The notes: generated from the sequence alone by a model not told the origin. 64,000 bases of DNA from an uncultured Muribaculaceae bacterium (GCA_964551965.1 CAZKFB010000001.1:7227-71226); one strand, 5' to 3'. Positions 579 to 30,125 are shown, counted from the stretch's first letter. Translations and numbers: made by a program.

Positions 579-587
579 GAATTTTAA

Positions 588-839: not shown

Positions 840-850
840 GGAGGGTACTC

Positions 851-964: not shown

Positions 965-975
965 GAGGGTATTAT

Positions 976-1350: not shown

Positions 1351-1369
1351 TTAAAGGAGGTTATTAAGA

Positions 1370-1753: not shown

Positions 1754-1786
1754 TAAATAAAGTAATTAAGGAAAGAGGATTGAAAT

Positions 1787-2725: not shown

Positions 2726-2750
2726 AAAATAAAACAAGGAGGTAACACTA

Positions 2751-3092: not shown

Positions 3093-3106
3093 TCAAGTCT
3101 TTTTTC
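3087..3106 (+). terminator. Weak intrinsic terminator after rplQ
   Basis: Short GACT/AGTC hairpin overlapping the stop codon, followed by a 6-T run. Confidence 0.35.
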
Positions 3107-9492: not shown

Positions 9493-10578
9493 ATGGAAAA
9501 AGTTGAATTACCAATTTTGAGAGGAAATAATAATAAAAAATCAATACCTTTAACAGTTACTGTTGGACTTATTATATTAGTTGTACTATTACTTATAATA
9601 AGTTTATCATTAACATTCAAAAAGACTTATAAGATAAATTATAGTGATTCTTCCGATTTAGATTATAAGGTATATTTAAAGAAAAACTCTCATTTTGATA
9701 CACAATATTTAGGAAAAGATAAACAGTATATTTCATCATTAATAGACTACATTGATGCAGATTTCACTTATAATTTTTCTAGTGAAGATGATATTGATAT
9801 CGATTATGAATACTATATATTAGCAACTCTTAATATCACAAATGCTGATGGTAAATCAATATATGAGAAAAAAGAGTATTTACAAAACATTAAAAAAGCA
9901 ACTTCAGATAACAATGCTTTAAATATTAAAGAAAACGTGAAAATTGATTATGATAAGTATAATAGAATAGCAAAAAGTTTTATTAGTGATTATGATTTAA
10001 CAGCTAATGCCAATCTAGTTATTAGTTTAATGGTCAATGTTAAGGGTAAGAATTCAAACTTTGATAAGACCATATCTGATGCTGGGGTAATTAAACTTAA
10101 TGTCCCATTAACAACTAAGACAGTAGATATATCTATGGACTATGAATTATCAAATAATAAGAATGCCACATTGCAACAAAGAGAAACAGTCATAAAGAAT
10201 AAAGCATTATTTATTGGTGGTGTTATATTTATAATTGTTGATATTTTAAGTATTATTGGTATTGTAGTTCATATTATAATTACTCGTGATGAAAAAGAAA
10301 AATATCGAGTAGCATTAAATAAAATATTAAGAGATAATGAAAGATATATAAGTGAGACTATTATTACTGAAAGAGTAGAAGATATGTTAAAAACTAGATC
10401 GTTAAGAATTGAAGTAGTAAAGAGCTTTAATGCTTTAATGGATATAAGAGATAGTTTAAACAAACCAATTCTCTACCATGAAGAGAAATTAGGAGAAGAA
10501 GCAGTATTCTATATATTAAGTGATCATATAGGTTACATATATGTAATGAATGTAAATGACTTTAAGAAAAAGAGATAA
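9493..10578 (+). CDS. N-terminally anchored membrane protein, unknown function
   Basis: Signal-anchor LTVTVGLIILVVLLLIISLSL, then a hydrophilic domain and a second TM near residue 230. RBS TGGAGTGG upstream. Lies inside the SipW-like locus. Confidence 0.5.
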   Translation: MEKVELPILRGNNNKKSIPLTVTVGLIILVVLLLIISLSLTFKKTYKINYSDSSDLDYKVYLKKNSHFDTQYLGKDKQYISSLIDYIDADFTYNFSSEDDIDIDYEYYILATLNITNADGKSIYEKKEYLQNIKKATSDNNALNIKENVKIDYDKYNRIAKSFISDYDLTANANLVISLMVNVKGKNSNFDKTISDAGVIKLNVPLTTKTVDISMDYELSNNKNATLQQRETVIKNKALFIGGVIFIIVDILSIIGIVVHIIITRDEKEKYRVALNKILRDNERYISETIITERVEDMLKTRSLRIEVVKSFNALMDIRDSLNKPILYHEEKLGEEAVFYILSDHIGYIYVMNVNDFKKKR

Positions 10579-16475: not shown

Positions 16476-16787
16476 GTGATTATTTTGGAAGTACTAGATC
16501 TAACCCCACTAAAAAGTGAATATAATTCACATTATCGAAATTATGATAAAAATATATTAGATTTTTATGAAATGAAGTTTCAAAATACATACACGATGGG
16601 AATCATCTTAAATTATATTATTGATACTAAAGAATATGAAGTGTATTGCTACATATACACAGATAAACAAACCGCATCTCATTTAAAAATGAAGTATTTC
16701 AAGAATAAAATATTATCCAAAATATATTTTAATTATTTAAAGTTATTTATGAATATAAGAGATTTGAGATTTTTTTTTAATAATTGA
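16476..16787 (+). CDS. Small hypothetical protein (GTG start), doubtful
   Basis: 103-aa ORF in an AT-rich spacer. GAGGTGA RBS before a GTG start. No recognisable domain. Confidence 0.2.
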   Translation: MIILEVLDLTPLKSEYNSHYRNYDKNILDFYEMKFQNTYTMGIILNYIIDTKEYEVYCYIYTDKQTASHLKMKYFKNKILSKIYFNYLKLFMNIRDLRFFFNN

Positions 16788-16854
16788 TTACAGTTTTATT
16801 ACAGTTTTGTAATAGAAATAAAAAAGATACTAAAGAGAAACTTTTCCGATATTT

Positions 16855-16884
16855 ACATTTACAAACCTTGATGTATAATGAAGT
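16855..16884 (+). promoter_or_regulatory. Candidate sigma-A type promoter upstream of the toxin-island operon
   Basis: TTTACA, 16-nt spacer, TATAAT preceded by TG. Lies ~110 nt upstream of the 16996 start. Confidence 0.35.
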
Positions 16885-16995
16885 AAAATGAATTAATTGT
16901 CTGTTGGATGATTAGTTCATTTTTTTATGCATTGGAGTGTGATTATTATGATTGTGCACAAATAATGATTAATTATACTAAAAAGGACTGATATT

Positions 16996-17340
16996 ATGAA
17001 ATTTATTAAAATAAAACCCACAACTAACTATAGTAATGAATCTATTATAAAACTATTTATTGAAGATAAATATTATCTTCATAAGACAACTATCACATTA
17101 ATACTTAACTATCCATTAGAAATAATCAATGGAATACCTGATGAATTAATAATACTAGTTCATAAAGGAGTAATTAATCAAGCATATATCAAGAGATTGG
17201 TATATAAAGAATCAACAGATAAAGAAGAAATAATAAAAGAATATTTGGAAATACCAAATATTTTTTTATTTAAAGGGGTTAATCATATTAAAACAAGCTG
17301 TAAAAATTTAGAAATAGAAATGGAGAATATATATGAATGA
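16996..17340 (+). CDS. Hypothetical protein (114 aa)
   Basis: ORF overlapping the start of the tail-collar gene by 8 nt, which suggests translational coupling. No recognised domain. Confidence 0.4.
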   Translation: MKFIKIKPTTNYSNESIIKLFIEDKYYLHKTTITLILNYPLEIINGIPDELIILVHKGVINQAYIKRLVYKESTDKEEIIKEYLEIPNIFLFKGVNHIKTSCKNLEIEMENIYE

Positions 17341-18001
17341 AAATATAAATAATTGTTTTACAGAAATTGAAGATGGAAAGATAAATGCTAAATTCAATAA
17401 AGCAACAATGAAATGCTTCGATTCAGAAAATAATAAATTTAGCATGGATTGTGATGGTAATTTAGTAGTTAATTCTATTATTACAAGAGAACAAAGTGGA
17501 AGTGGCCTAACATTTAATCAAGTGTATCCAGTAGGATCGATTTATATGAGTGTAAGTTCAATAGATCCTAGTACATTGTTTGGAGGAACTTGGGAACAAG
17601 TTAAAGGAAGATTTTTACTTGGCTGTGGAAATAATGGAGATGGAAATGATTACCTTGCTAATAATGTTGGTGGAGAAGCATCTCATCAATTAAGTATTAA
17701 TGAAGTACCAAGCCATGCTCACTATGTTAATTTGGTTACTGGAGCTAATGGAGCACATAATCATAATCTAAGAAGAGATATGGTAGGTAATGAATTTGGA
17801 ATCGGCGGAGGAAATTCTGTTGGAAACAGTTTAAACGGAACTTGGTCAAATACTAGTATATGGCCTAATTCTATTGGAGCATCTAGTGCTGGAATTCATA
17901 ATCATACTGTTTCCGGAAATACTAATGCTAATGGTGGAAGTCAATTCCATAACAATATGCCACCTTATCTTTGTGTATATATTTGGAAAAGAGTTTCTTA
18001 A
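17333..18001 (+). CDS. Phage tail collar domain protein (MdpB-like)
   Basis: Gly/Asn-rich repeats with HxH boxes (HAHYVNLVTGANGAHNHNL, HNHTVSGNTNANGG) and the terminal NMPPYL motif typical of phage tail-collar / microcystin-dependent protein family members. Confidence 0.7.
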   Translation: MNENINNCFTEIEDGKINAKFNKATMKCFDSENNKFSMDCDGNLVVNSIITREQSGSGLTFNQVYPVGSIYMSVSSIDPSTLFGGTWEQVKGRFLLGCGNNGDGNDYLANNVGGEASHQLSINEVPSHAHYVNLVTGANGAHNHNLRRDMVGNEFGIGGGNSVGNSLNGTWSNTSIWPNSIGASSAGIHNHTVSGNTNANGGSQFHNNMPPYLCVYIWKRVS

Positions 18002-18020: not shown

Positions 18021-21000
18021 ATGAAAGAATTAATTAATTTAAGAAAACAAAGAGAAAAACACTTTCTAAATAAAGATGGAACAATAACTGCATGTATGTA
18101 TGATCATGATATCCATTATTTAGAAAATGGAGAATATAAAGAAATTGATAATACTCTAATAGAAGAGAATGATTATATTACAAATAAAAGCAATGATTTT
18201 AAAATAAGATTTAATAATGATAAATATTTAGTCAATATTAATCTAGGTAATAGCTATTTAAATATAAGTTTAAAAAATGCTAATGAAACAAAATCAAAGA
18301 TAATTAATAATGAAGTAATCTATGAAAATGTTCTACCTAATATAGATTTTCATTATTTAATTAATGGTTCAACATTAAAAGAAAATATCTATTTAAATAA
18401 TGAAATAAAAAATAGTATAATTTTTAATATTGATACTAATTTAAAATTAGAAATAAGAGATAATAAGGTACTTGCATTAGATAAAGATAAGGTTATATAT
18501 ACATTTAATCCATTATTTATGATTGATGCAAATGAAGTAATTAATCGCAATTGTAAATATAAATTAGAAAAAAATAATGATTTTTATGAATTAGAGATTA
18601 TTCTTGATCAAGACTATTTAATGAATGCCAATTATCCAGTAATTATTGATCCAACAATTACAAGTGATAATTTAGAAAATGTATTTGATGTAACTATTAA
18701 TTCAAATGCTGCAGATAGTAATTTTGATTTTTCAAAACATTTATATATTGGAAATGATGGAACAGGAATAAAGCGTGCATTATTAAAATTTGATTTACCT
18801 TTTATTTCTACAGGTTGCAACATTATAAAAGCAACAGTATATTTAAAAAATTCAGTTGCATTTATCCATGAAAATTCTGAGAGAATTGCCGTCCACGAAA
18901 TTACAGAAAGTTGGGATGAATCAACTGCGACATGGAATAACATGAGTAGTAAATTCGATACTAAAATGGAAACTTATCTTGAAACACCTCAAATGTTATA
19001 CCTAGATACAGCATTTGATTTTGAAATAACCAATATTGTAAAAAAATGGTATACCAATAATGTTAATAACGGAATCATGCTAAAATTGTTTGATGAAAGC
19101 CCTAATACAAGTCATGCAGACTATAGCTTTTACTCTAAAACATATGATGGAGTAAATGGAACGGCAGATCGACCATATCTAGTTATTGAATATAGAATGC
19201 AAAATGGTCTATTAGATTATATGACATATGAAAGTATACCCCTTTCGTATGGCGCATCATACATTAATAATAATAATGGTAATTTGATAACTCAAATATC
19301 TTTATCGGAAATATTAGATCAAACAAGTTTATATGGTTTACAAATAACATATAATACAGATAGTATGTTATTAAACCAAAATAATGGTTTCGGATTAGGA
19401 TTCAATATCAGTTATAATGACTATGTAATAAAGACTCCTAATCAATTTATGGAAACGGAATATTTATATAAACTATCTGATGGAACTAGTCATTATTTCT
19501 ATCAATTTAGTAAAGGAATATTTTGTGATGAAGATGGCATAAATCTAACGTTAGAAATTGTTAATGAGGAAAATAATAATTATAAAATTACTGATAAAGA
19601 GGGAAATAAATTTATTTTTACCAATAGTTATTTATCAAAAATAGAATATGTCGATGAAACATTTGTTAATATTGTTAGAAATAGTTCTAATTATATTACA
19701 AGTATTAAAGATAGTAAGAATAATGAAGTTACTATTAACTATAATACAAATCAAGTTTTATTAACATGTAATAATAAAACAATTACTGTTAATTTAACAA
19801 ATAATAAGATAAATAATATTTCATTTAAAAAGGGAAATATTAATTTTAATTATAATGACAGTTCACTTATATCAAAAATTATTGATATTAATGGTTTAGG
19901 TGCAGGATTTGATTATTATGAGGTATCTCCTTATCGTGTAAAGAAATTAACTGAATATGGATTAAATAATGCTACCGGTAAATTCAAAACTTTTACATAT
20001 GAATTTAATTCGACAACAGTAACTGATCATAAGAATAATAAAATTAGATATACTTTCAATAATATGGGCAATACAATAAGCACTGTTATTTTAGGAAGTG
20101 ATGATTCATTAAAGAATTCTTATGGATTTTCAGAAAAATATATAGACGAAGTAAAGTCGGCTGCTACTAATAAAGTATTATCAAGTTCATTACCTATTAA
20201 GTTTACAAAAAATTTAATTAAGAATGGAAACTTTGAGACTACAGATAATAATTTCTTATTCCAGTATAAATCTAATGAAGATAGTTATAATGGCAATTAT
20301 TCAGCAAAAATTAACGCATATGGTAATGGACAAATAGCAAATGTTTTTGAGAGTACAAAAAATTATACTTTTGGTGCGTTTTATAAAAATGAACATCCAG
20401 TCTATATTGAAATATATTCTAAATTAAACACTGATGTAGAAACATTAAAAGAATACATTATTATGCCTAATGATGAATTTACTTATCAAGAAAAAACATT
20501 TGAGACACCTAGTCAGTTTGATTGTATTGGTTTTAACTTCACTGTTTTGTATGATGGAATTGCTTATATGGATGATGTTGTAATAAGCGAAGGAGAGTCA
20601 GCAGGATTATATAATTTAATCGATAACCCAGACTTTGAAGATAATACTGATGGTTGGCTAATTAGTGGAAGTGTTGACGGATCTGAAGAAGAAATAAGTA
20701 ATCCATATCAAATAATTACTTTGTCATCAAATGAAAAAGCTATTCAGTTAAATAGTATTGTCAATGGTGGAGTATCAATGGTTAAAACTTTACCTATTTC
20801 CGGAAAAATTGGAGATGCTTATACCTTTTCTTTTTGGTATAAGAATGAAGGAGTGTTTAATGTTGATTCGGGATTAGTTGGAAATATGGCAGCAATCATA
20901 TTTAACGATCCTGATGATGATTTAGGAAGTGGAACGCAAAATGCATTATTAAATTATCATGCTGATAATTGGCAATATTATACAGATACTTGTGTAGCAG

Positions 21001-23981
21001 AGAATAATTATGATTCAATCACAATTGTAATATTAAGTATGTATGAAGCAAATCATATTTCTTTAACTAATTTTTCACTTATTAAAGATTTAGGTTCTTA
21101 TTCATTTAAATATGATGATAATGGAAATTTAATATCATTGAGTGATGTATTAAGCAATAAAAGTGAATTTAAATATGATAGTAATAATCAATTAATTAGT
21201 TCATTTAATGCTAAGGGTAAAAACTTTAAATATGAATATGATAATACTAAAGCAGATAGGCTTCTTAAAGGAATTAGTCCTACCGGAATATCTAATGAAA
21301 TTAAGTATGATGAATTTGGAAATCCTAAAGCCACAATTATTAACAATGTTAATCCAAAAGGGAATGATATAGATGGCAACTTCTATATTCGCTCTAAGGG
21401 TACTGATAAATATTTAACTCCTGATTTACAAACGGGAATAATAAGTTTAAAAAATGATACATGTAGTCATTATTCATACTCAATTGAAAGCCATAATGAG
21501 ATTAATGATCAAACAGAAACAAAAGTATATAATTTAAAATCAACTATATTACCAGATAAAGTTTTAGTAAAAATTGATAATACTATAAAACTAGTTAAAA
21601 CTGGGCCTTGTACAAACTTTGAATTTATTAATAGAGATAATGGATCAAAATTAATAAAGGTATATAATGAAGATTTATACTTAAAGGTAGATAATGAAGG
21701 ATTAGTATTTGCAGCTCTTGAAGAAAATTCAAACTATGAATTTTACTTTGAAGATACTGACACTAATGAATTTATTATGAATACTTCTGAATATACAGAA
21801 GATGGAAAATATATTACTAAAATGATTGATACTTTAGGAAATACAACTACTTATGATATTGATCATAATACAAATCTTGTAAATTCAATAACTAATGCTA
21901 AAGGGATTGAAACAACATATACATATGATAATAAAGATCGATTAACAAATGTAACTGTTGATAATAAACAAGTAGAATATGTTTATGAAAATGATTTAAT
22001 AAAAAATATTAAAACTGGTAATAAGAATTATCAATTTGAATATGATAATTTCCTAAATCCAACTAAGGTAAAAATCAACAATCAGACATTAGTAACTAAT
22101 GAATATGAAAGTAATAATGGAAAATTAAAAAGTGTTACTTATGGCAATAATGAAATTATTAATTATGAATATGATAAATTTGAAAGATTAGCTAAAAGTA
22201 ATAATTATGAATATCAATATAATAATTCAGGATTATTAAAATCAGTTAAAGATAATACTTCTTATATAGAAGATTACAATTATGACTTTGCTAATCGATT
22301 AAAAACATATATGCTTAATAATAAATTTAAAATAAATTATAACTATGATGTCAATAGTAATATCAATCATAAAGATTATTATTATGGAAATTATAAAAAT
22401 ACATTAGATTATATATTTAATGATGATGATTCAGTTATAAAAGTAAACTTTGATAACAATACAGTTAATTATACTTATGATTATTTAGGAAGATTGATAA
22501 CAAGGAATATTAATGATAATCTACCAGTAGAATATACATATAAGAAAAATGGAGATAGAACATCATTAATAATAGATACTATAAAAATAGGTAATGATAT
22601 TTATAAGTATTCATATGATAATCTATATAATATAACATCTATTAAAAAGAATAATGAGATAATCAATGAATATCTATATGATAATAGAAGTGAATTATTA
22701 GCAGATATCAATTATGAATTAAATAGAAAGTATGTTTATGCATATGATAACGAAGGAAACATCATAACTAAAAAAGAATATAACTTAGAAACTAACGAAT
22801 TAATTGATGAAGATACATTTACTTATGGAAATACTTCATGGGAAGATCAGTTAACTAAATTTAATAATGATGTAATAACTTATGATGAAATAGGAAATCC
22901 AATAACTATTGGAAGTAAAGAATTAACATGGAGTAAAGGAAGACAGTTAACAAAATATAAAGATGGAAATACAGAAATAAATTATAAGTATAATAAAGAT
23001 GGAATAAGAATATCAAAAGAGATAGGGAATAATAAAACAAATTATTATTTAGAAGGAAGAAAAATAATATTTGAAGATAAAAATAATAATGTGATATACT
23101 ATATATATGATGATAGTGGTTACTTGTTAGGATTCAAATATAACAATGAAATATACTATTATCAAAAGAACTATCAAAATGATATAACAGGAATCTACGA
23201 TAGTAATTATAACTTAGTAGTAAGCTATAAATATGATGGATGGGGAAATATAATAAAAGTAGAAGATAATACAAGTAATAATATAGGAAGTATAAATCCA
23301 TTCAGATATAGAAGTTACTATTATGATGAAGAGACAAGTTTATATTATTTAAATAGTAGATACTATAATCCAAATTGGTGTAGATTTATTAATATAGACG
23401 AGTATATAAAAATTTCTTCACTAGGAGGAAATTTATATTCATATACAGAAAATAATCCTATTACAAATATAGATGAAACAGGCAACATCTTTAAAAAGGT
23501 AGCTAAATTCTTTGTTGACAGCTATACTAAAACAAAAAAAATAGTGAAGAATAGTAGCAAAAAGATTTCTGATAAATTTAAGAAATTTAAAAAACAGTTG
23601 AAAGAAGGATATGAATATCTTAAAAAATCATTTGTGCTTGAAACGGGAAGAGGAAACGGTTTTTCACTAGAAGATAATACATCTTTTGCAAAAATTGGAA
23701 TAAACGATTCAACAAATATTGTATCAAAGTATAAACAAGGGAAAAAAGAAGAATACTTAGAGCAAACAAGAGGGATTTCATTAGGAGTTGTTGGCATCTC
23801 ACAAAACCTTGTGGATTTAGAAACAGAAGGTTTAAACCATTATCCAACAACTTATTCAATTGGGATAATTGAATTTTCTGATACAGATGGAACAATTTTT
23901 ATTGGGCATACAACTAGCTTACATTTTTATGTTGGTGGATATGTAAAAATAGGATTTGAAATAAAAATGACAGGAAATTGA
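18021..23981 (+). CDS. RHS/YD-repeat polymorphic toxin (1986 aa), no signal peptide, variable C-terminal toxin domain
   Basis: Many YD-type repeats (YxYDxxGN..., YEYD, YKYD). RHS repeat-associated core end is ...YKYDGWGNII...NPFRYRSYYYDEETSLYYLNSRYYNPNWCRFINIDEY, followed by the junction motif LYSYTENNPITNIDETGN and then a ~170-aa lysine-rich C-terminal domain. The N-terminal ~400 aa resemble the beta-sandwich (DNRLRE-like) module seen in Firmicutes RHS proteins (..RIAVHEITESWDESTATWNNM..). The hydrophilic N-terminus has no Sec signal. Confidence 0.9.
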   Translation: MKELINLRKQREKHFLNKDGTITACMYDHDIHYLENGEYKEIDNTLIEENDYITNKSNDFKIRFNNDKYLVNINLGNSYLNISLKNANETKSKIINNEVIYENVLPNIDFHYLINGSTLKENIYLNNEIKNSIIFNIDTNLKLEIRDNKVLALDKDKVIYTFNPLFMIDANEVINRNCKYKLEKNNDFYELEIILDQDYLMNANYPVIIDPTITSDNLENVFDVTINSNAADSNFDFSKHLYIGNDGTGIKRALLKFDLPFISTGCNIIKATVYLKNSVAFIHENSERIAVHEITESWDESTATWNNMSSKFDTKMETYLETPQMLYLDTAFDFEITNIVKKWYTNNVNNGIMLKLFDESPNTSHADYSFYSKTYDGVNGTADRPYLVIEYRMQNGLLDYMTYESIPLSYGASYINNNNGNLITQISLSEILDQTSLYGLQITYNTDSMLLNQNNGFGLGFNISYNDYVIKTPNQFMETEYLYKLSDGTSHYFYQFSKGIFCDEDGINLTLEIVNEENNNYKITDKEGNKFIFTNSYLSKIEYVDETFVNIVRNSSNYITSIKDSKNNEVTINYNTNQVLLTCNNKTITVNLTNNKINNISFKKGNINFNYNDSSLISKIIDINGLGAGFDYYEVSPYRVKKLTEYGLNNATGKFKTFTYEFNSTTVTDHKNNKIRYTFNNMGNTISTVILGSDDSLKNSYGFSEKYIDEVKSAATNKVLSSSLPIKFTKNLIKNGNFETTDNNFLFQYKSNEDSYNGNYSAKINAYGNGQIANVFESTKNYTFGAFYKNEHPVYIEIYSKLNTDVETLKEYIIMPNDEFTYQEKTFETPSQFDCIGFNFTVLYDGIAYMDDVVISEGESAGLYNLIDNPDFEDNTDGWLISGSVDGSEEEISNPYQIITLSSNEKAIQLNSIVNGGVSMVKTLPISGKIGDAYTFSFWYKNEGVFNVDSGLVGNMAAIIFNDPDDDLGSGTQNALLNYHADNWQYYTDTCVAENNYDSITIVILSMYEANHISLTNFSLIKDLGSYSFKYDDNGNLISLSDVLSNKSEFKYDSNNQLISSFNAKGKNFKYEYDNTKADRLLKGISPTGISNEIKYDEFGNPKATIINNVNPKGNDIDGNFYIRSKGTDKYLTPDLQTGIISLKNDTCSHYSYSIESHNEINDQTETKVYNLKSTILPDKVLVKIDNTIKLVKTGPCTNFEFINRDNGSKLIKVYNEDLYLKVDNEGLVFAALEENSNYEFYFEDTDTNEFIMNTSEYTEDGKYITKMIDTLGNTTTYDIDHNTNLVNSITNAKGIETTYTYDNKDRLTNVTVDNKQVEYVYENDLIKNIKTGNKNYQFEYDNFLNPTKVKINNQTLVTNEYESNNGKLKSVTYGNNEIINYEYDKFERLAKSNNYEYQYNNSGLLKSVKDNTSYIEDYNYDFANRLKTYMLNNKFKINYNYDVNSNINHKDYYYGNYKNTLDYIFNDDDSVIKVNFDNNTVNYTYDYLGRLITRNINDNLPVEYTYKKNGDRTSLIIDTIKIGNDIYKYSYDNLYNITSIKKNNEIINEYLYDNRSELLADINYELNRKYVYAYDNEGNIITKKEYNLETNELIDEDTFTYGNTSWEDQLTKFNNDVITYDEIGNPITIGSKELTWSKGRQLTKYKDGNTEINYKYNKDGIRISKEIGNNKTNYYLEGRKIIFEDKNNNVIYYIYDDSGYLLGFKYNNEIYYYQKNYQNDITGIYDSNYNLVVSYKYDGWGNIIKVEDNTSNNIGSINPFRYRSYYYDEETSLYYLNSRYYNPNWCRFINIDEYIKISSLGGNLYSYTENNPITNIDETGNIFKKVAKFFVDSYTKTKKIVKNSSKKISDKFKKFKKQLKEGYEYLKKSFVLETGRGNGFSLEDNTSFAKIGINDSTNIVSKYKQGKKEEYLEQTRGISLGVVGISQNLVDLETEGLNHYPTTYSIGIIEFSDTDGTIFIGHTTSLHFYVGGYVKIGFEIKMTGN
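23079..23400 (+). repeat. Repeat copy A: 3' end of the RHS core, in the full-length gene
   Basis: aataataatgtgatatactatatatatgatgatagtggttacttgttagg...tggtgtagatttattaat recurs near-identically at 25754 (from its start) and at 24302 (from its middle). Confidence 0.85.
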
Positions 23982-23997: not shown

Positions 23998-24294
23998 ATG
24001 GCAAAAAAGCAGTGTAGAATAGGAAGTATAATTTTTGCAAAAGAATACTTAACGGAGCAAAACGATTTTTTTAATAGAAAAATATACTATAATGAGATTA
24101 AAAGCTATTATATAAAGGCAACCATACATTCTAAATATATGACAAAAGATTTATGCATTATAACTGAAAAAAACAAAAAAAAGAAAATGTCCTATACAGT
24201 TGGACAATGTGGGATTTTTTTCTTTGATCCAGAAGAAAATATAATTAATATGATGAAAATGGTTTGCCCCCATGCTGAATATATAAAAAAATAA
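23998..24294 (+). CDS. Putative cognate immunity protein for the RHS C-terminal toxin
   Basis: Small ORF 17 nt downstream of the toxin stop, with GGTGAAG RBS. Position is typical for rhsI-type immunity genes. No homology asserted. Confidence 0.45.
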   Translation: MAKKQCRIGSIIFAKEYLTEQNDFFNRKIYYNEIKSYYIKATIHSKYMTKDLCIITEKNKKKKMSYTVGQCGIFFFDPEENIINMMKMVCPHAEYIKK

Positions 24295-24481: not shown

Positions 24482-25104
24482 CTGATGGAATAGTAGGAGC
24501 AAACCAAGACATAACGAGTTTAAACTTGTATGCATATGTAAGTAATAATCCAATTAGTAATACGGATGATGATGGCAATTCATTATTTAAAGTGATAAGA
24601 AAAGCAGTTAAAATTGCCGCAAACATATCATTTAAAGGAGTTAAGGATAAAGTTGTTAACACAGCCAAAAGATATATTAAAAATAAGATAGATGGATATT
24701 ATCAAATTGGAAAAGCATATGTGGACTCTAAAATAAACGAAATGAATTTTAGAGCAAATGCATTTTATGCTGAAGTTGGTGTAAGTGACCCCACAGTAAG
24801 CAAAGCTATAAGTAAAAGTAATAATACGTTGGGGATATATACTAATAAAACATACAAAATTCACCAAAAACAGATTTCTCGTTCAGCGGATACTGTATTA
24901 AGTATAAGTCCAATTTCCATTTCAAAATCTATAGACGATGAATCGACTGTTAGTAAAAACATATCATATTCGTTTAAATATGTAGAATTGTCATCTGAGG
25001 GATTTTTCTTTGGATATTCTTTCAGTGAGCATCACGGCACCGTTGGAATAGATGCAAAATTAGGTTTATATGTCAAATGGGATTGGTTTATAAAAGGCAT
25101 TTAA
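24302..25104 (+). CDS. Orphan RHS C-terminal cassette: displaced core-end fragment fused in frame to an alternative toxin domain, with no upstream start codon
   Basis: Frame opens right after the immunity gene stop and encodes VVSYKYDGWGNILEVEDNTTNNIGSINPFRYRSYYYDEETSLYYLNSRYYNPKWCRFINADG...LNLYAYVSNNPISNTDDDGN. This duplicates residues ~1730-1815 of the main gene and is followed by a different ~175-aa C-terminal domain. The ORF track reports only the TTG-initiated 24526..25104 part. Confidence 0.65.
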
Positions 25105-25132
25105 AATGATATAGGAAGATAGGTAATGGTGT

Positions 25133-25660
25133 ATGAAAGATATAGTTAAATATAATATAATATTTTTTAATCTTTTTCCAATTATAATAGAATCAATAAT
25201 CATAATTGTGGGAAGTATAGTTTTTCAATCACCGATTTTTTTACTATCTTTTATATTTATATTTATTGAGTGTAAAAACCTAAGAAAAAATTTAGACAAT
25301 TTAAGAAAAGTTCAAAATAAATTTGATTGTGTTGGAGAAGTACTTTATCAAAACAGTGGGTGTTTTCTATATGACAGTTGTATTATAAACATTAAATTTA
25401 ATATTTTTACTGTAGATTATTCTGATATAGATGAAATATATTTTGAAAAAGAATATTATGGAAATGTAAGAGAGCCAAATATATGTATAATAACTAAGGA
25501 TAGAAAAAAATATAAAATTAAATTTCCAAGATTAACAGTACCACAACCAAATGATGAAGAACTTAATCTTATAATTGGCATTATAAAAAAGAATAATCCT
25601 AAGGTGAAATTGACTGGTAACACTATAAAAAAATATATCGAACCAGATTTATTTAATTAG
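25133..25660 (+). CDS. Putative immunity protein for orphan toxin 1 (membrane protein)
   Basis: Follows the orphan toxin by 28 nt. N-terminal hydrophobic region of two TMs (IIFFNLFPIIIESIIIIVGSIVFQSPIFLLSFIFIFI). Confidence 0.4.
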   Translation: MKDIVKYNIIFFNLFPIIIESIIIIVGSIVFQSPIFLLSFIFIFIECKNLRKNLDNLRKVQNKFDCVGEVLYQNSGCFLYDSCIINIKFNIFTVDYSDIDEIYFEKEYYGNVREPNICIITKDRKKYKIKFPRLTVPQPNDEELNLIIGIIKKNNPKVKLTGNTIKKYIEPDLFN

Positions 25661-25753
25661 TTTAAATTGTATAGTTTAATTATAGTTGAAAAGAATATAT
25701 GCAAAGAATATTTGTGGTAAAATAGTGAGTAATTTTTATTATTTTAAATCGAA

Positions 25754-26000
25754 AATAATAATGTGATATACTATATATATGATGATAGTGGTTACTTGTT
25801 AGGATTCAAATATAACAATGAAATGTACTATTATCAAAAGAACTATCAAAATGATATAACAGGAATCTATGATAGTAATTACAACTTAGTAGTAAGCTAT
25901 AAATATGATGGATGGGGAAATATATTATCAGTAGAAAATAATACAATAAATAGTATATGAAGTATAAATCAATATAGATATCTAGTTTACTACTACGATG
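25754..26000 (+). pseudogene. Orphan cassette 2: degenerate RHS core-end fragment with premature stops and the toxin domain lost
   Basis: Starts with the same aataataatgtgatatactatatatatgatg... as main-gene position 23079. Translates as ...YIYDDSGYLLGFKYNNEMYYYQKNYQNDITGIYDSNYNLVVSYKYDGWGNILSVENNTINSI*, then decays (stop codons within SINQYRYLVYYYDGDNIFVIYT*). Confidence 0.65.
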
Positions 26001-26094
26001 GAGATAATATCTTCGTTATTTATACTTAGCATATCATTTAATCATTCTATACAAAATAAATATATATTGATATCTAAATCCTCGGAGGAAGTTT

Positions 26095-26730
26095 ATGAAA
26101 AAAACAAAGATTACAATTACAAAAGAAAACATACCCATAATATCAGCAAAAGCAAATCTTTTGATAACAAAACTTTTTAAAATTAATTTTTTTGTTTGTC
26201 TATTAGCGGGATATTTCTTTGTGAATGATTTAGTTACAAATACTGTAAAAGAAAGCTCCAACAAATACAATGTGCAAACGGATAGTTATTTGATAGTTTC
26301 TGCAATTTTATTTGTTTTATTAGTAATTTTGATGAGATATTTACATTTATATTTTTCATATAAAAAAATGCATAACAAAAAATACAATGATGAAAATAAT
26401 TATACAATATCATATAAGAATGAGTATTTAATCGGGGAAAATATAAATACAAAAATCAAAGTAAATTATGATAAGATATTTTTTATTGGAAAAGTTGACT
26501 TGTTATATTTTATGGCCTATTTAGATGACAATGAATATTTTATATTGCCGATAGGAAATGTTGGAATAGATGGTTTTACAATTAATGAATTATTAGTTAA
26601 TTGTCACAATTTAAAATTTAAAAAAATAGTATCTTATAATTCGAAAAAAAAGTTGTGCATATTACTTTTTGTAATATTATTTCTGATGTTTTTAGTTAAT
26701 TTTACTAGATTCCTATATTGTATAATTTAA
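26095..26730 (+). CDS. Membrane protein, possible orphan immunity gene
   Basis: 211 aa with several TMs. GGAGGAAG RBS. Located directly after the degenerate orphan cassette. Confidence 0.35.
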   Translation: MKKTKITITKENIPIISAKANLLITKLFKINFFVCLLAGYFFVNDLVTNTVKESSNKYNVQTDSYLIVSAILFVLLVILMRYLHLYFSYKKMHNKKYNDENNYTISYKNEYLIGENINTKIKVNYDKIFFIGKVDLLYFMAYLDDNEYFILPIGNVGIDGFTINELLVNCHNLKFKKIVSYNSKKKLCILLFVILFLMFLVNFTRFLYCII

Positions 26731-26788
26731 ACAAATGCTTTTTCAAGTTGCAATATTGTCATCTGACGGATTATTATTTGGATAATCG

Positions 26789-26887
26789 TTCAGCTTGCAT
26801 TATGGTGGACCTGGAGGCAATATAAAGTTGGATATTAAATTTTTAGATGGACTAGATTTTTTTAAATTTAAATTCATAACCGTGTGA
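26789..26887 (+). pseudogene. Remnant of a toxin-domain 3' end (third displaced cassette tail)
   Basis: Short frame SFSLHYGGPGGNIKLDIKFLDGLDFFKFKFITV* resembles the C-terminal end of orphan toxin 1 (YSFSEHHGTVGIDAKLGLYVKWDWFIKGI*). It has no start and no upstream domain. Confidence 0.35.
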
Positions 26888-26946
26888 GTAGTAAAATCTA
26901 AAAGATATATATGAAAATGATCGAATATGAGTTATAATTGAAATGA

Positions 26947-27741
26947 TTGAAGTTGGTGATACTAGTGGATAATAAATTTACATATCTTATTGGTTGTATC
27001 TTCTTATTTGGTGTCTTTATCTATTTGATTTTTTGTGTTATAAAAGAGTTAAAATTGTATAAAAGTTTTGATTTATCAAAAAAAATAGATTTGAAAAAGT
27101 ACAATAAGATACAGGATGTCAAAACAAGAACAATTGCATATATTATTTTATCAATTTGTATAGGCTTGCTATGTGTATTGGCGCTCTTTAATTTACCTAA
27201 AATTATAACTGGATTTTATGATGATAATTTTATTATTCAAGAATGTGAGATAACAGACTATCTATATAATGGAGTAGATAATCCTGACATGCTTAGTTGC
27301 AAGAATGATAATTTGGAAATAAATGAAATAGAGTTCTATAGCAGAGCTGAATCCATAGATGAAGATAGTATCGGGAATCATATTTGTATTAAAATAAAGC
27401 CTAATAGAGGAAACGCTGAGATTATAAAAATGAGTAATGAACATAATCTTTCTTGTGATGAGTTTTATTGGCAAAATAAAAATGAAAAGAATGAAGTTAA
27501 TTATAATTACTCAATAGTTAAATGTGAAATTAGTAAATATGAAAAAAATAGAATTAACTGCCGTATTAATAATAAGATATATTTAAAAGAAATAGATTTA
27601 TTAAATAAAGAGACAATACAAAAGCATAATAAAATATGCTTAAAGTATTATTGGAATACTAATTCGGGAGAAATTCTATATTCAGATGATTCTAATAAGA
27701 AGTTTAGTTGTGATGATTATATAAAACAAGAAGAAAAATAA
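26947..27741 (+). CDS. Hypothetical protein with N-terminal TM, Cys-rich, possible orphan immunity or accessory gene
   Basis: 264-aa ORF with an N-terminal TM and a second TM near residue 60. No recognised domain. Confidence 0.35.
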   Translation: MKLVILVDNKFTYLIGCIFLFGVFIYLIFCVIKELKLYKSFDLSKKIDLKKYNKIQDVKTRTIAYIILSICIGLLCVLALFNLPKIITGFYDDNFIIQECEITDYLYNGVDNPDMLSCKNDNLEINEIEFYSRAESIDEDSIGNHICIKIKPNRGNAEIIKMSNEHNLSCDEFYWQNKNEKNEVNYNYSIVKCEISKYEKNRINCRINNKIYLKEIDLLNKETIQKHNKICLKYYWNTNSGEILYSDDSNKKFSCDDYIKQEEK

Positions 27742-27768
27742 GATTATAAAGATTAATAGGAGTATTAA

Positions 27769-28347
27769 ATGGAAAAGATAGTAATAAGAGTATTAGGAGT
27801 TTTGTTTATGCTAGTTGCTTTAAAATTAATTAGAGATGTGGCCAGTTCTGATAATTATAATAAAACTCAATCTATAAAAGAAAAAATCCTTAAAACAAAA
27901 AATATTAAAGGGTATACTTGTTCCAATCGAGATGGGTATAAACTAATATTCTTTGGTTTAACAATTGTTTTTCTTATTATGACTGTTATAAGTCTGATTG
28001 TATTTATATATGAAATAATAAAAAAATATGATGTCAGCGAGACAAATAATATTCTTGGTATAACAAGTGTTATGCTTTGCTTATTCCTTGCCAGTCTTTT
28101 ATTATTTATTTATACTTCAAAGTGCAATCTCTATTTTAATGATGAAGAAATAATTAGATATAGGATATTAAGGAAAAAACAAGTCATGAAATATAAAGAT
28201 ATTGTGAGAACAATGGTAACCCCATTTTCTAGAATAATATTATATTCAACAGATGACAAATTGATATTTGGACTAGATACATCACAAAGCAATAAATTTA
28301 TTGATTTATTGAAAAAAAAGGGAATAGACATTAGTTATAAAATGTAA
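27769..28347 (+). CDS. Membrane protein (4 predicted TMs), unknown function
   Basis: GGAG RBS. Hydrophobic segments at about residues 5-20, 60-80, 95-115 and 150-165. Confidence 0.4.
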   Translation: MEKIVIRVLGVLFMLVALKLIRDVASSDNYNKTQSIKEKILKTKNIKGYTCSNRDGYKLIFFGLTIVFLIMTVISLIVFIYEIIKKYDVSETNNILGITSVMLCLFLASLLLFIYTSKCNLYFNDEEIIRYRILRKKQVMKYKDIVRTMVTPFSRIILYSTDDKLIFGLDTSQSNKFIDLLKKKGIDISYKM

Positions 28348-28418: not shown

Positions 28419-28443
28419 AAGAGCAATTTTATTGCTCTTTTTT
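28419..28443 (+). terminator. Intrinsic terminator immediately upstream of the hydrolase/holin genes
   Basis: AAGAGCAAT-ttt-ATTGCTCTT hairpin followed by a T-run. Confidence 0.6.
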
Positions 28444-28462
28444 AATGAAAGGAAGTGAGTTA

Positions 28463-29086
28463 ATGGCATATATATTAAGAAAAATAATTAATAGTCCATT
28501 AAAGGATATAACTAGTTCTAAGATTAATTCTGATTTTGGACCACGAACTTTTTATAATAAGATAACTAAAAGATATGAAACAGGACACCATAATGGTATT
28601 GATATTACAGGAAGCAATGTTGTCGTTTCTGCTTTTGATGGTATTGTTACTAGTACAAGAAATAATGTTGATGGTTATACGGAAAAGTATAAGAGTGGTA
28701 ATTACGTAACTATAAATCACGGTAATAATCTATATTCAACCTATTGCCATCTAAAAAAGAATTCTATTTGTGTAAAAAAAGGACAATATGTAGTAGCTGG
28801 TACTAAACTAGGTATAATGGGCAAGACTGGTCATGCAACCGGAATACACTTACATTTTGGTATTAAAAAGGATGGCAAATTTGTTGATCCTAAACCATAT
28901 CTTTTAAACAATGTTGCAAATATTAAAAATAATATTGAAGTTATCTATATTGTAAAAAAGGGAGATAATTTATCAAAGATAGCTAAGAAATATCATACTA
29001 CTTGGAAGAGAATATATGAAAAGAATAAGGAATTAATAGGAGACAATCCTAATTTAATATATCCGGGATGGGAATTAAAGATTTAA
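28463..29086 (+). CDS. M23 family peptidoglycan endopeptidase with C-terminal LysM domain
   Basis: M23 metal-binding motifs HHNGIDI ... GNYVTINHGNNLYSTYCHL ... GKTGHATGIHLHFG. The C-terminal LysM is YIVKKGDNLSKIAKKYHTTWKRIYEKNKELIGDNPNLIYPGWELKI. Start taken at 28463 (GGAAGTGAG RBS) rather than the track's 28445. No signal peptide. Confidence 0.8.
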   Translation: MAYILRKIINSPLKDITSSKINSDFGPRTFYNKITKRYETGHHNGIDITGSNVVVSAFDGIVTSTRNNVDGYTEKYKSGNYVTINHGNNLYSTYCHLKKNSICVKKGQYVVAGTKLGIMGKTGHATGIHLHFGIKKDGKFVDPKPYLLNNVANIKNNIEVIYIVKKGDNLSKIAKKYHTTWKRIYEKNKELIGDNPNLIYPGWELKI

Positions 29087-29457
29087 TTAATATTAATGTG
29101 ATAAGTAGTACGTTTATTTTTTTAATAGGTGGCTTTGATAATTTATTTATAACTTTATTAATATTCATTGCTCTTGATTATATAACAGGTGTAATTAAAG
29201 CAATTTATCAAAAAAAGTTAAATAGCAAATTAGGATTAAAAGGATTTTTAAAAAAATTAGGTTATATATTAATAGTAATAATAGGAAGTTTATTTGATTC
29301 ACTTATAGGAGATAAAACAATGGCAATAAGAACATTATGTATATATTTCTTTATTTCTAATGAAGCCATTTCAATACTTGAAAATTGGGCGTTTATGGGT
29401 CTTCCACTTCCCAAGAAAATATTTCAAGTATTTGAATCTTTAAAAGAAGATAAATAA
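29068..29457 (+). CDS. Holin of the TcdE/UtxA family (toxin-secretion / phage-lysis holin)
   Basis: Three-TM small protein. LDYITGVIKAIYQKKLNSKLGLKGFLKKLGYILIVIIG and the C-terminal ILENWAFMGLPLPKKIF align by eye with my recollection of the C. difficile TcdE sequence. The start overlaps the hydrolase gene end by 19 nt. Confidence 0.75.
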   Translation: MGIKDLININVISSTFIFLIGGFDNLFITLLIFIALDYITGVIKAIYQKKLNSKLGLKGFLKKLGYILIVIIGSLFDSLIGDKTMAIRTLCIYFFISNEAISILENWAFMGLPLPKKIFQVFESLKEDK

Positions 29458-29462
29458 AATTA

Positions 29463-29491
29463 TTGACTATATAAGGGAAAAAGGGTAATAT
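29463..29491 (+). promoter_or_regulatory. Candidate sigma-A promoter for the regulator gene
   Basis: TTGACT, 17-nt spacer, TAATAT. Sits ~30 nt before the AAGAGGTGA RBS of the 29521 gene. Confidence 0.45.
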
Positions 29492-29520
29492 ATACAATCA
29501 AGTGATTAAGAGGTGATTAT

Positions 29521-30036
29521 ATGATTAATACAATCTCGATTAAAGACTTTGTTGAATTACCAGATATTATGTTAGACAAAGCAAGAAAAGTTAAATATAT
29601 TCAACTATTAAGTGAAAATACAGTTAATGAATATTATTATTCTAATCTAAGAAAAGATATAGAAAAAGTTTTTAATAAATTTAAAGATTCTAAATATTTA
29701 ATATGCTATGATAATAACTATAGTTTAAAATCTAATGCCAGTTCACTAGAATTAAATAGGAACACTAATAAAATCAATGATAAGGTTGGAACATATATAG
29801 AAAGTAAAATGGATTTAAGTATATGGTCTAAGGATTTATATAATATTTTATATGCCTTATCAGAAGAATTAACAATAGAAGAATCTATGTATTTAACACT
29901 TACATTCTTTGAGGAAAAGACTGAAGAAGATATAAGTGAAATATTGGATGTTTCTAAAAAAGGCCTATATAAAATAAAAAAGAGTTGTTTAGTAAAACTA
30001 AGATTAGAGTTTTCTAAATATGATTTGATGAATTAG
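29521..30036 (+). CDS. Putative transcription factor with sigma-70 region-4-like C-terminal HTH (TcdR/UviA-type small sigma or ArpU-family phage late regulator)
   Basis: C-terminal LTFFEEKTEEDISEILDVSKKGLYKIKKSCLVKLR matches the region 4.2 pattern (F....T..EI.EIL..S...V.K.R..AL.KL) shared by TcdR-like sigma factors and ArpU regulators. It is 171 aa, the size of both families. Confidence 0.5.
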   Translation: MINTISIKDFVELPDIMLDKARKVKYIQLLSENTVNEYYYSNLRKDIEKVFNKFKDSKYLICYDNNYSLKSNASSLELNRNTNKINDKVGTYIESKMDLSIWSKDLYNILYALSEELTIEESMYLTLTFFEEKTEEDISEILDVSKKGLYKIKKSCLVKLRLEFSKYDLMN

Positions 30037-30067
30037 AGAAGTGTGAGAAATCACACTTCTTTTTTTA
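30037..30067 (+). terminator. Strong intrinsic terminator at the right edge of the toxin island
   Basis: 10-bp perfect stem AGAAGTGTGA / TCACACTTCT with a GAAA loop and a 7-T run. Confidence 0.85.
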
Positions 30068-30125
30068 TTTGTATTGACATGAATAATATATCTTGTTGTA
30101 TTATTAACATGGAAGGTGATATTTA

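Follow-up and report, generated by a model that had tools for sequence, protein, structure and literature searches.

Within a 64,000-nucleotide stretch of DNA catalogued as an uncultured Muribaculaceae bacterium (GCA_964551965.1, CAZKFB010000001.1:7227-71226; this whole stretch is referred to here as the window), positions 28,419 to 30,067 hold a gene for an M23 endopeptidase with a LysM domain, an overlapping gene for a holin of the TcdE family, and a gene for a small regulator, designated REG. Judged by comparative genomics, these three genes are the release-and-control 3' end of a single Rhs polymorphic-toxin island of ~13.6 kb (window ~16.5-30.07 kb) and not a stray phage remnant. On balance, the island may well be a Gram-positive analogue of the type 10 secretion system (T10SS) or of bacteriocin-type lytic toxin release, placed under a phage-type late-gene regulator. 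An earlier reading of this DNA (the original prediction) had asked whether the holin and hydrolase cause lysis or toxin release, and a provisional answer can be offered, in that the cassette appears to be genetically tied to an Rhs toxin devoid of an export signal. The features of the cassette are as follows.

28419-28444, plus strand: weak intrinsic terminator (hairpin 28419-28439 and a T-run), 9-bp stem, dG -9.5 kcal/mol, directly 5' of the hydrolase ribosome-binding site (RBS).
28463-29086, plus strand: M23 endopeptidase with LysM domain (Pfam, orthologues), predicted to be cytoplasmic unless the holin acts.
29068-29457, plus strand: holin of the Phage_holin_4_1/TIGR01593 (TcdE) family (profile matches, hydropathy).
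29463-29491, plus strand: REG promoter, TTGACT-17-TAATAT (consensus scan and conservation).
29521-30036, plus strand: REG, a two-domain regulator of 171 aa with a sigma-4-like C-terminal domain (profiles, AlphaFold model).
30035-30069, plus strand: strong intrinsic terminator closing the island (hairpin 30035-30062), dG -16 kcal/mol, z = -5.2.

Linkage of the lysis cassette to an Rhs toxin operon

When REG was used as a probe, the gene order Gp10_C-Rhs-...-M23-holin-REG was recovered from nine GTDB species loci (L014-L020, L025 and L026; L numbers denote the loci compared) and from many metagenome contigs. Contigs with REG homologues at 44-75% identity are all alike, carrying Gp10_C, an Rhs gene of ~2000 codons, variable small genes, M23+LysM, the holin and REG. 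The product of the first gene of the Rhs operon, p114, served as a second, independent probe and led to the same unit, ending in M23-holin and a 171-aa open reading frame (ORF). In L104/L105 and L106, for example, p114 is followed by two or three Gp10_C genes, Rhs, an immunity-sized ORF, M23+LysM, the holin, and an ORF of 170-171 aa. The flanks of the island vary by lineage and include adh_short/UvrB, SocA_Panacea, PolyA_pol, and helix-turn-helix genes, such that the unit is conserved but its neighbourhood is not. In L011-L013, a 37%-identical regulator (P0027) lies directly 5' of a Phage_holin_6_1 gene and a CHAP/SH3 lysin gene, followed by Gp10_C. Here, unrelated and non-homologous equivalents stand in place of the lysis pair, suggesting that the lysis function belongs to the system.

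The holin, the hydrolase, and REG are all of phage ancestry, and in one lineage (L108/L109) the module is decaying beside a recombinase fragment, as might be expected if a prophage had left its lysis module next to the Rhs locus by chance, for autolysis or for no purpose. Such an origin is highly improbable given that no phage structural or replication genes were found among the ORFs flanking the trio, that the gene order is kept beside Rhs at different chromosomal sites, that all three genes are under purifying selection, and that the REG family and the Rhs operon share a specific leader module.

A separate class of loci, in which REG lies directly 5' of Gp10_C-Rhs and lysis genes are lacking, was considered and dropped: L021 and L016 proved to be one locus on a single contig, L021 being its upstream half, and the sequences of L031, L035, and L036 end too early. 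The island is not compositionally distinct from its surroundings, the GC content being ~25% over 12-34 kb.

The holin and the M23+LysM hydrolase

The holin matches PF05105 at 125.4 bits (cut-off 22.2) over positions 3-116 of 116, and TIGR01593, “toxin secretion/phage lysis holin,” at 94.9 bits (cut-off 40.2). Kyte-Doolittle hydropathy marks residues 14-47, a span that could form two helices, and residues 63-82 as hydrophobic, and the C-terminus, FESLKEDK, is charged; a full-length match above cut-off and about three transmembrane segments are thus in keeping with the TcdE family. Identity to annotated Firmicutes phage holins is 42-49%. The holin gene overlaps the hydrolase gene by exactly 19 nt, an arrangement consistent with translational coupling.

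The hydrolase starts at the ATG at 28463, as in its orthologues; a longer ORF from 28445 is not conserved and begins inside the terminator T-run. Its Peptidase_M23 (PF01551) and LysM (PF01476) domains score 81.1 bits (cut-off 28.7) and 48.9 bits (cut-off 20.9), respectively, and the catalytic and zinc-binding residues H43-x3-D47, H96, and H129-L-H131 are invariant across nine orthologues. A hydropathy check found no hydrophobic N-terminus in the hydrolase, hence no signal peptide, and the enzyme is therefore predicted to need the holin. The ratio of nonsynonymous to synonymous change (dN/dS) is 0.09-0.18 for the hydrolase relative to orthologues of other lineages, and for the holin 0.12-0.17 relative to the closer orthologues and 0.33-0.44 relative to the two most distant; synonymous change is near saturation in several pairs, so these values are rough but their direction is clear. 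The holin is intact in all lineages but one (L108/L109). With intact ORFs, invariant catalytic residues, and purifying selection, the pair looks functional.

A scan found four terminator-like sites in 3.5 kb, relative to 0.6 expected. The terminator preceding the hydrolase gene is much weaker than that at the end of the island (-9.5 vs -16 kcal/mol). A hairpin with different, covarying stems occurs at the same position in L002, L003, L005, and L008/L019, and in L005 it directly adjoins the stop codon of the gene before it. From the end of the T-run it is ~5 nt to the RBS and ~19 nt to the ATG. This gap is too short for a promoter, and in some relatives there is no spacer, which leaves transcription from upstream as the only source of M23-holin mRNA; the pair is therefore the distal part of the Rhs transcription unit.

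Much of what the original prediction said about the pair held up. The 19-nt overlap between an M23+LysM gene and a TcdE-family holin gene was confirmed, with all profiles above their cut-offs; the hydrolase's predicted dependence on the holin and the functional appearance of the pair were likewise borne out. The intrinsic terminator placed at 28419-28443 is present as hairpin and T-run, but the 20 nt said to separate it from the RBS are only ~5 nt. The idea that the hydrolase gene is insulated under a private promoter had to be abandoned, there being no room for a promoter between terminator and RBS, and relatives existing without the terminator or the spacer.

In a non-lytic model, of the kind originally put forward for TcdE and the Serratia T10SS, the holin would pass the Rhs complex through the membrane and the M23 enzyme would open the wall locally, leaving the cell alive. 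The holin does fall in the “toxin secretion/phage lysis holin” subfamily, the weak terminator before M23-holin would keep the dose low, and the literature includes discussion of holin-mediated export in the absence of lysis (PMC9527704). Nevertheless, such a model is unlikely: the hydrolase is full-length and retains all of its catalytic residues, unlike the TcdL remnant of C. difficile (PMC12485765), the cargo is 1986 aa long and possibly in a complex, and recent studies of TcdE and of the T10SSs of Yersinia and Serratia indicate that a subpopulation lyses (PMC10847048, PMC12485765).

Alternatively, the hydrolase may itself be a weapon or helper, a bacteriolysin released along with Rhs to attack the wall of the target and so give the toxin access to the membrane, with the holin mainly serving as its exit. 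Some M23 enzymes, lysostaphin and zoocin A among them, are secreted bacteriolysins, LysM can bind peptidoglycan from outside as well, and the hydrolase is co-inherited with the toxin. A generic exit function fits better, since a CHAP/SH3 lysin and a different holin substitute elsewhere in the usual phage order of holin then lysin, and no immunity-like gene is tied to the hydrolase. A weapon role is thus a shade less likely again than non-lytic export, and it would be compatible with lytic release instead of excluding it.

Two further observations concern lysis modules at other loci. At L108 18040-19350 and in L109, the decayed module comprises an M23 gene with in-frame stops and a holin gene cut down to 91 codons, with a fragment of a recombinase gene and another Rhs gene behind them; the leader and the main Rhs operon remain intact. 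L106 carries a second holin/hydrolase pair (1177-2119; Phage_holin_6_1 with PG_binding_1/Peptidase_M15_3) 8 kb upstream of its Rhs island, and no recognisable phage genes were found in the surrounding DNA that was fetched.

A promoter-plus-terminator leader heads the Rhs operon

The Rhs operon is headed by a compact module with the following parts.

16784-16808, no strand assigned: two tandem 11-nt direct repeats, TT(G/T)ATTACAGT, ~45 nt upstream of the P1 -35 element.
16852-16879, plus strand: P1, a sigma-A-type promoter, TTTACA-16-TATAAT, conserved in 16 distinct loci.
16884-16926, plus strand: leader RNA hairpin (14-18 bp) with a U-run, an intrinsic terminator, dG -15.5 kcal/mol, z = -6.45.
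16948-16965, plus strand: mini-ORF MIVHK* immediately past the leader terminator, preceded by a strong RBS-like GGAGTGTGA (box and ORF together, 16934-16965).

P1 agrees with the sigma-A consensus at 11 of 12 positions, and both the arrangement and the spacing of its -35 and -10 elements are kept in 16 distinct versions. Because a scan for consensus promoters performed at chance level in this 25% GC DNA (26 matches vs 27.8 expected), promoter claims made here draw solely on conservation across loci. The leader hairpin starts 4-5 nt after the -10 element, at the very 5' end of the transcript, beginning with AAAATG and ending with CATTTT and further T's. Across the first 15 stem positions of the 16 versions (240 cells), there are 30 G-U wobbles, no A-C mismatches, and nine non-pairs, with compensatory AT-to-GC and AT-to-TA changes at positions 8, 11, and 12. 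The asymmetry between G-U and A-C argues for a hairpin of the sense-strand RNA and rules out the inverted repeat as a DNA operator. A base-pairing small RNA was likewise rejected, since only the stem is conserved and the loop is not. A search of Rfam with 14-32 kb at E <= 1 returned nothing, and the hairpin thus corresponds to no RNA family described there. A -10-like TAAAAT hexamer overlaps the predicted start of the P1 transcript.

In all 16 versions, the module adjoins either the Rhs operon or a REG homologue. At loci resembling the window it lies 5' of p114-Gp10_C-Rhs, and in L011-L013 and the distant-paralogue loci L022-L024, L027, and L032-L034 it precedes the REG gene and is itself followed by a second promoter, TTGACx-17-TAnAAT. 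An exact-motif scan for the hairpin in metagenome and viral contigs gave 67 matches, most of them due to chance or to a conserved coding region of marine phages, with ~10 genuine modules; all matches that have both the promoter and a proper hairpin lie beside p114/Gp10_C/Rhs or in a regulator-type locus. Loci of the L064 type, with a leader and a TTGACA promoter beside recombinase fragments and a MazF-like gene, have no recognisable REG and were dropped.

The direct repeats upstream of P1 are, by inference only, a candidate binding site for REG. Direct repeats also occur 5' of equivalent promoters, namely four to five copies of ATTTAGTTTAC in L027 and L032-L034, and two of TTTACA in L021, L058, and L104. 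Elsewhere in the window, neither another copy of the 16784-16808 repeat nor a second P1-type module was found beyond chance. A GAGGTG box with an ORF of 3-7 codons (MIV..., MSC*, MKT*, MKKRR*; often MIV) occupies the place of the mini-ORF in L020, L021, L026, L058, L078, L104, and L106, and in L027 the box and short ORF are located after the regulator.

As an observation on the variant architecture, the order in L011 (6084-8218), L012, and L013 is leader module, second promoter, REG, terminator, Phage_holin_6_1, CHAP+SH3 lysin, and Gp10_C; it adjoins a serine recombinase and an ORF6N gene, and may sit on a mobile element.

REG is a distant relative of phage late-gene activators

REG is separated from the holin gene by 63 nt with no terminator between them. 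Its promoter box, TTGAC(T/A)-17-TAnnAT, recurs in the short holin-REG spacer of L002, L005, L008, L017, L018, L019, L025, L026, L104, and L106 and is not kept in L016 or L020. The terminator closing the island is kept with covarying stems in L002, L005, L008, and L104. Relative to closer orthologues, dN/dS of REG is 0.11-0.27, and 0.45 relative to L017. The family is small, with 27 clusters in a search of 5.8 billion proteins and 165 representatives at 50% identity in 1.84 billion, and its members derive from metagenome-assembled genomes (MAGs) of uncultured gut “Bacilli” or “Tenericutes.” Sequencing runs of ruminant and rabbit gut are among the sources of L001-L020.

Profile searches with Pfam and NCBIfam gave sub-threshold matches to sigma-70 region 4 only (E ~1e-4) and no Sigma70_r2 match. 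An AlphaFold2 (AF2) model built from 16 homologues (predicted local distance difference test, pLDDT, 82; predicted template-modelling score, pTM, 0.74) has an N-terminal domain of three helices, joined by a disordered linker to a helical C-terminal domain; the latter superposes on sigma-4 of SigF with a template-modelling (TM) score of 0.83 and a root-mean-square deviation (rmsd) of 1.2 A. When the model was searched against the PDB with Foldseek, the top matches were all sigma factors but at E of 0.4 or worse, with only the sigma-4 part superposing well, and a profile search of PDB sequences gave SigF sigma-4 as its sole match (E = 0.024). Among viral structures in BFVD, matches were to Sigma-70 region 4, a transcriptional activator, DUF1492 (LtrB), and an extracytoplasmic-function sigma factor, with probabilities up to 1.0 and E = 4e-3 to 0.1. 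Weaker members of the REG family, which act as bridging relatives, match TIGR01637 (ArpU) over its full length at only 18-32 bits (cut-off 43.1), and hhalign aligned the REG group with an ArpU-like group at 99.6% and E = 1.8e-24 over 139 columns. REG itself had no match to TIGR01637 at E <= 1 and reached no curated threshold, and tblastn of REG against 50,697 phage genomes returned no match.

By these profile and structure comparisons, REG is a distant relative of the ArpU/Ltr phage late-gene activators, a matter of homology and not of family membership. ArpU, RinA, LtrA (Sigma70_r4), LtrB (DUF1492), and LtrC form a superfamily that activates phage packaging and lysis operons, the sites bound by Ltr/ArpU proteins being 7-nt direct repeats located 5' of the late promoter (PMC3753634). 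The position of REG varies; in L011-L013 it lies directly upstream of the holin and lysin genes, and in the window it lies downstream of M23-holin.

The competing assignment is to a highly diverged group-5 sigma factor (TcdR/UviA/BotR/TetR) acting on TTTACA-type promoters of toxin and lysis genes. The -35 element of P1, TTTACA, is indeed the one recognised by TcdR-type factors (PMC4031146), the C-terminal domain is sigma-4-like as described above, and the logic of the clostridial pathogenicity locus (PaLoc), toxin with holin and small positive regulator, is present. This assignment is nonetheless very unlikely. Region 2 is missing, the N-terminal domain comprising just three helices; region 4.2 lacks the SRQ motif (PMC4031146), REG reading VSKKGLYKIKKSCLVK (I-C/S-R/K-K in orthologues), S-K/R-K...YKIKKSC; the -10 element is TATAAT in all 16 versions and not GTTATA (PMC4031146), P1 being close to the sigma-A consensus; and the homology signal goes to ArpU/Ltr.

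The original prediction had described a regulator with a region-4-like C-terminus, no recognisable region 2, and its own TTGACT-17-TAATAT promoter, and had left the family open between a group-5 sigma factor and an ArpU-type factor. The description stands, with the promoter box conserved in most lineages. As for the family, only the -35 TTTACA speaks for the group-5 option, and the ArpU option survives as distant homology short of the TIGR01637 cut-off. The suggested search for TcdR-type promoters was productive in part, in that the -35 element was found at P1 upstream of the Rhs operon, but paired with a TATAAT -10, and no such promoter precedes the hydrolase gene.

Distant paralogues of REG serve other operons, in what appear to be mobile elements. 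In L027, L028, L030, and L032-L034, paralogues of 31-34% identity lie 5' of genes for a signal-peptide protein, a surface-type protein of 839-1094 aa, and a sortase-sized membrane protein, in surroundings that look like a conjugative element; upstream of these paralogues are four to five direct repeats ATTTAGTTTAC, the promoter-hairpin module, a 24-codon ORF, and another terminator. L035 has about nine tandem copies of the 7-nt unit GTTGTAT/GTTGTAA at 9895-9975, directly 5' of the regulator's RBS, and a second small Sigma70_r4-like ORF (155 aa) between REG and the Gp10_C-Rhs genes.

Genes of the Rhs operon and the presumed cargo

The remaining features of the island lie between the leader and the lysis cassette, apart from the first, which precedes the leader.

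16476-16787, plus strand: p103, a small ORF recurring immediately 5' of the leader module; its membership of the system is uncertain.
16996-17340, plus strand: p114, a system-specific all-beta protein (AF2 model), first gene of the Rhs operon.
17333-18001, plus strand: Gp10_C protein, similar to a phage tail/tail-fibre C-terminal (receptor-binding-tip-like) domain (Pfam, PHROG, PDB).
18021-23981, plus strand: Rhs polymorphic toxin, 1986 aa (RHS_repeat E = 1e-19).
23998-24294, plus strand: putative cognate immunity gene, a 98-aa ORF (by position only).
24526-28347, plus strand: array of orphan Rhs C-terminal, immunity, and membrane-protein genes, of variable content (different in L001-L010).

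In the Rhs protein, the core-end motif YSYTENNPITNIDETGN precedes a ~170-aa C-terminal domain that differs among orthologues (e.g., Tox-WTIP in L008). An orphan C-terminal module in the array starts with MYAYVSNNPISNTDDDGN, and the array also contains, at 25763-25960, an orphan Rhs-repeat fragment of 65 aa that nearly duplicates the core end of the main Rhs gene at 23100-23300 (IYYIYDDSGYLLGFKYNNE.YYYQKNYQNDITGIYDSNYNLVVSYKYDGWGNI); this fragment is likely a substrate for recombination that swaps C-terminal toxin cassettes. As judged by its repeats, core-end motif, variable C-terminus, and orphan cassettes, with immunity assigned from position, the locus is a classical polymorphic toxin locus. 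Neither a signal peptide, an LXG domain, nor a transmembrane segment was detected in the Rhs protein, and no hydrophobic N-terminal segment or transmembrane helix was seen in Rhs, Gp10_C, p114, or the M23 enzyme.

The Gp10_C protein matches Pfam Gp10_C (E = 1.5e-23), tail proteins in PHROG (E = 5e-26), and the phage structural protein 7z47_I in the PDB (E = 2.5e-4), and one to three copies lie 5' of the Rhs gene in all related loci; a role as targeting subunit is speculation. For p114, only 25 homologue clusters were found among 5.8e9 proteins. Its AF2 model (pLDDT 87) is an all-beta fold with no significant match among PDB structures, the galectin-like matches having E > 0.03 and low TM. Homologues of p103 occur just 5' of the leader/p114 in L026, L058, L077, L078, L104, and L106 and beside REG paralogues in L021 and L108; p103 has no Pfam or PHROG match. 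It resembles part of the 513-608-aa proteins that precede some REG paralogues, one of which, in L035, has a GFO_IDH_MocA N-terminal domain, and it may be a remnant or an extra component.

Outside the island, gene sizes and order at window positions 1-3100 resemble a ribosomal-protein/rpoA cluster, judged by layout alone. Relative to L002, the window has extra CMD, alpha-amylase, ABC-F, and acetyltransferase genes between REG and adh_short/UvrB.

A proposed mechanism

In the lytic-release model favoured here, Rhs, Gp10_C, and p114 would be made without an export signal and build up in the cytoplasm. The TcdE-family holin would then open the membrane, the signal-less M23+LysM enzyme would reach and cut the peptidoglycan, and the producer, probably a minority of cells, would burst and let the toxin out. 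That the holin would let the hydrolase out and that wall damage would free Rhs follow from the holin-endolysin paradigm and the absence of export signals. The gene content agrees with that of a T10SS, a holin and a peptidoglycan hydrolase being linked, outside a prophage, to signal-less Rhs, Gp10_C, and p114. M23-holin would be expressed only as the far end of the P1 transcript, and in this lineage RNA polymerase would pass the weak terminator en route; the distal position and the weak terminator suggest that lysis would follow toxin synthesis and be attenuated relative to it.

The switch would be REG, made at a basal level from its own sigma-A promoter. With its near-consensus sequence, P1 should fire unaided, and the nearby conserved terminator would abort the resulting transcripts; in all 16 versions, a constitutive-looking promoter has a terminator just behind it and ahead of the genes presumed to be controlled, as in Q-type control. 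REG may act on this promoter-hairpin module either by Q-like antitermination (i.e., read-through) or by boosting initiation. A read-through factor would turn on p114, Gp10_C, Rhs, and the immunity genes, and, if it were processive, transcription would also pass the terminator at 28419-28444 into M23, the holin, and REG. Since no terminator separates the holin from REG, the activated transcript would make more REG, a positive loop suited to all-or-none firing in a subpopulation, in line with published accounts of the Yersinia T10SS and of TcdE (PMC10847048, PMC12485765). Alternatively, REG may raise initiation at P1 through the upstream repeats or the TTTACA boxes, as is described for Ltr proteins, in which case the terminators would be mere dampers.

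A more specific version, tentative and somewhat doubtful as a whole, would make the system a soluble “Rhs bacteriocin” comprising signal-less Rhs, Gp10_C (possibly for targeting), and p114, released by altruistic lysis and fired in bistable fashion by a Q-like antiterminator, an ArpU relative, acting on the conserved 40-nt terminator.

A number of points weigh against the lytic-release model and the role given to REG. All of the evidence is comparative genomics of uncultured MAGs and metagenome contigs, and both linkage probes, REG and p114, were drawn from the island itself. P1 and its leader are no more than a putative direct target of REG. ArpU is described as a direct-repeat-binding activator and not as an antiterminator (PMC3753634), and a literature search found nothing linking ArpU-type proteins to antitermination. 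REG paralogues at 31-36% identity occur in other contexts, beside surface protein and sortase-like genes or LysR genes, and the family is therefore not toxin-specific. The terminator preceding M23 is present in only part of the clade, being absent from L018, L020, and L025, where the hydrolase abuts the upstream ORF, and there is no clear hairpin in L016, L104, or L106. The cassette can also be lost, since in L108/L109 the M23 gene is a pseudogene and the holin is truncated beside an intact Rhs gene. Finally, for L031, L035, and L036 the available sequence stops short of the 3' side of the Rhs array, and these loci neither support nor contradict linkage to the lysis pair.

Significance

We know of no settled answer to how Gram-positive Rhs/YD toxins are exported when they have neither a Sec signal nor a domain (LXG) for the type VII secretion system (T7SS). 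The island offers a concrete, testable one, that of a toxin operon with its own phage-derived exit, holin and hydrolase, and its own switch, likewise derived from phage. A search of one literature library turned up no account of a Gram-positive Rhs toxin that carries a lysis cassette or holin/hydrolase pair of its own, and a large polymorphic-toxin survey from 2012 brings up lysis only in connection with colicin-like bacteriocins. Should the more specific “Rhs bacteriocin” version prove correct, Gram-positive Rhs toxins lacking Sec or T7SS (LXG) signals would have their first dedicated export route, and antitermination would be a new mechanism for the Ltr/ArpU superfamily. The island would also extend the logic of the T10SS, the C. 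difficile PaLoc, and bacteriocin release to the interbacterial Rhs toxins of abundant, uncultured gut Bacilli. The promoter-terminator module (~75 nt) and a 171-aa protein would make up a compact regulatory device that may reveal how part of the Ltr superfamily works. Likewise, the presence of a tail-fibre-tip protein alongside an Rhs toxin is a hint of receptor-targeted delivery, a property that could be put to use in engineered narrow-spectrum antibacterials.

Comparison with known systems

The T10SS cassettes of the Tc loci (YenLC of Yersinia entomophaga and ChiWXYZ of Serratia) share with the island a non-prophage holin and peptidoglycan hydrolase serving a very large, signal-less toxin with an Rhs-type shell, and a dedicated regulator. 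Tc toxins, which have an Rhs-type cocoon, are released by T10SS-dependent lysis of a specialised subpopulation of cells (PMC10847048); a counterpart of this is proposed here. Unlike in the Tc loci, the host is Gram-positive, so there are no spanins, and the hydrolase is M23+LysM where the T10SS enzymes are L-Ala-D-Glu peptidases or muramidases. The presumed cargo, a single-chain polymorphic Rhs protein accompanied by immunity genes and orphan cassettes, is most likely antibacterial and is not an ABC insecticidal complex. The regulator is ArpU/Ltr-like, unlike RoeA or ChiR, and the cassette lies at the 3' end of the toxin operon itself.

The clostridial loci (TcdR/TcdE/TcdL of the C. difficile PaLoc, TcsE of P. 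sordellii, and TpeL of C. perfringens) have a holin of the same family beside a signal-less giant toxin, a small positive regulator with a sigma-4-like domain, and a gene derived from a phage endolysin. TcdE-dependent lysis of a minority of cells frees TcdA/B (PMC12485765), and expression and lysis in a subpopulation, as reported for such loci, are also proposed here. Relative to the PaLoc, the hydrolase is intact and conserved where TcdL is a remnant, REG is not a TcdR-type sigma factor, having neither region 2 nor SRQ, the toxin is Rhs and not a glucosyltransferase, and no gene for a TcdC-like anti-sigma factor was recognised among the domain-scanned ORFs.

Like the Ltr activators (ArpU, RinA, LtrA, LtrB, and LtrC), REG is a small two-domain protein with a sigma-4-like C-terminal domain. 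Direct repeats lie 5' of the promoter, as at Ltr targets, where an operon ending in holin and lysin is switched on (PMC3753634). A promoter-proximal terminator is obligatory at REG's proposed target, and none is mentioned for Ltr in the passages of PMC3753634 that were consulted. REG differs further from the Ltr proteins in remaining below the TIGR01637 and Pfam thresholds and in having no match in the phage genomes searched, and its proposed target is a toxin island where theirs is a virion operon.

In lambdoid phages, Q acts at pR'-tR', where a near-consensus constitutive promoter and a terminator that yields a short RNA lie upstream of the lysis genes. The island resembles this arrangement in the -10-like TAAAAT at the transcript start, the promoterless lysis genes downstream, and the further terminators within the unit. 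No relation of sequence or fold between REG and Q was found, and the likeness would be one of layout.

Killing agents released by lysis include the colicins with their lysis proteins, the R and F pyocins, and PBSX of B. subtilis with its sigma-like Xpf. The island would differ from these in its killing agent, an Rhs polymorphic toxin and not a pore-former, nuclease colicin, or contractile tail, and, relative to tailocins, no tail, sheath, or baseplate genes were recognised apart from that for the Gp10_C-domain protein. By analogy, it would share with them a cytoplasmic killing agent, a dedicated lysis function, sacrifice of the producer, release and regulation derived from phage, and a fibre-like targeting protein. 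Overall, the closest relatives of the island by function would be the T10SS cassettes of Tc toxins and the clostridial PaLoc-type loci, with a regulator whose ancestry points to the Ltr superfamily and a transcriptional layout that most resembles Q-type antitermination.

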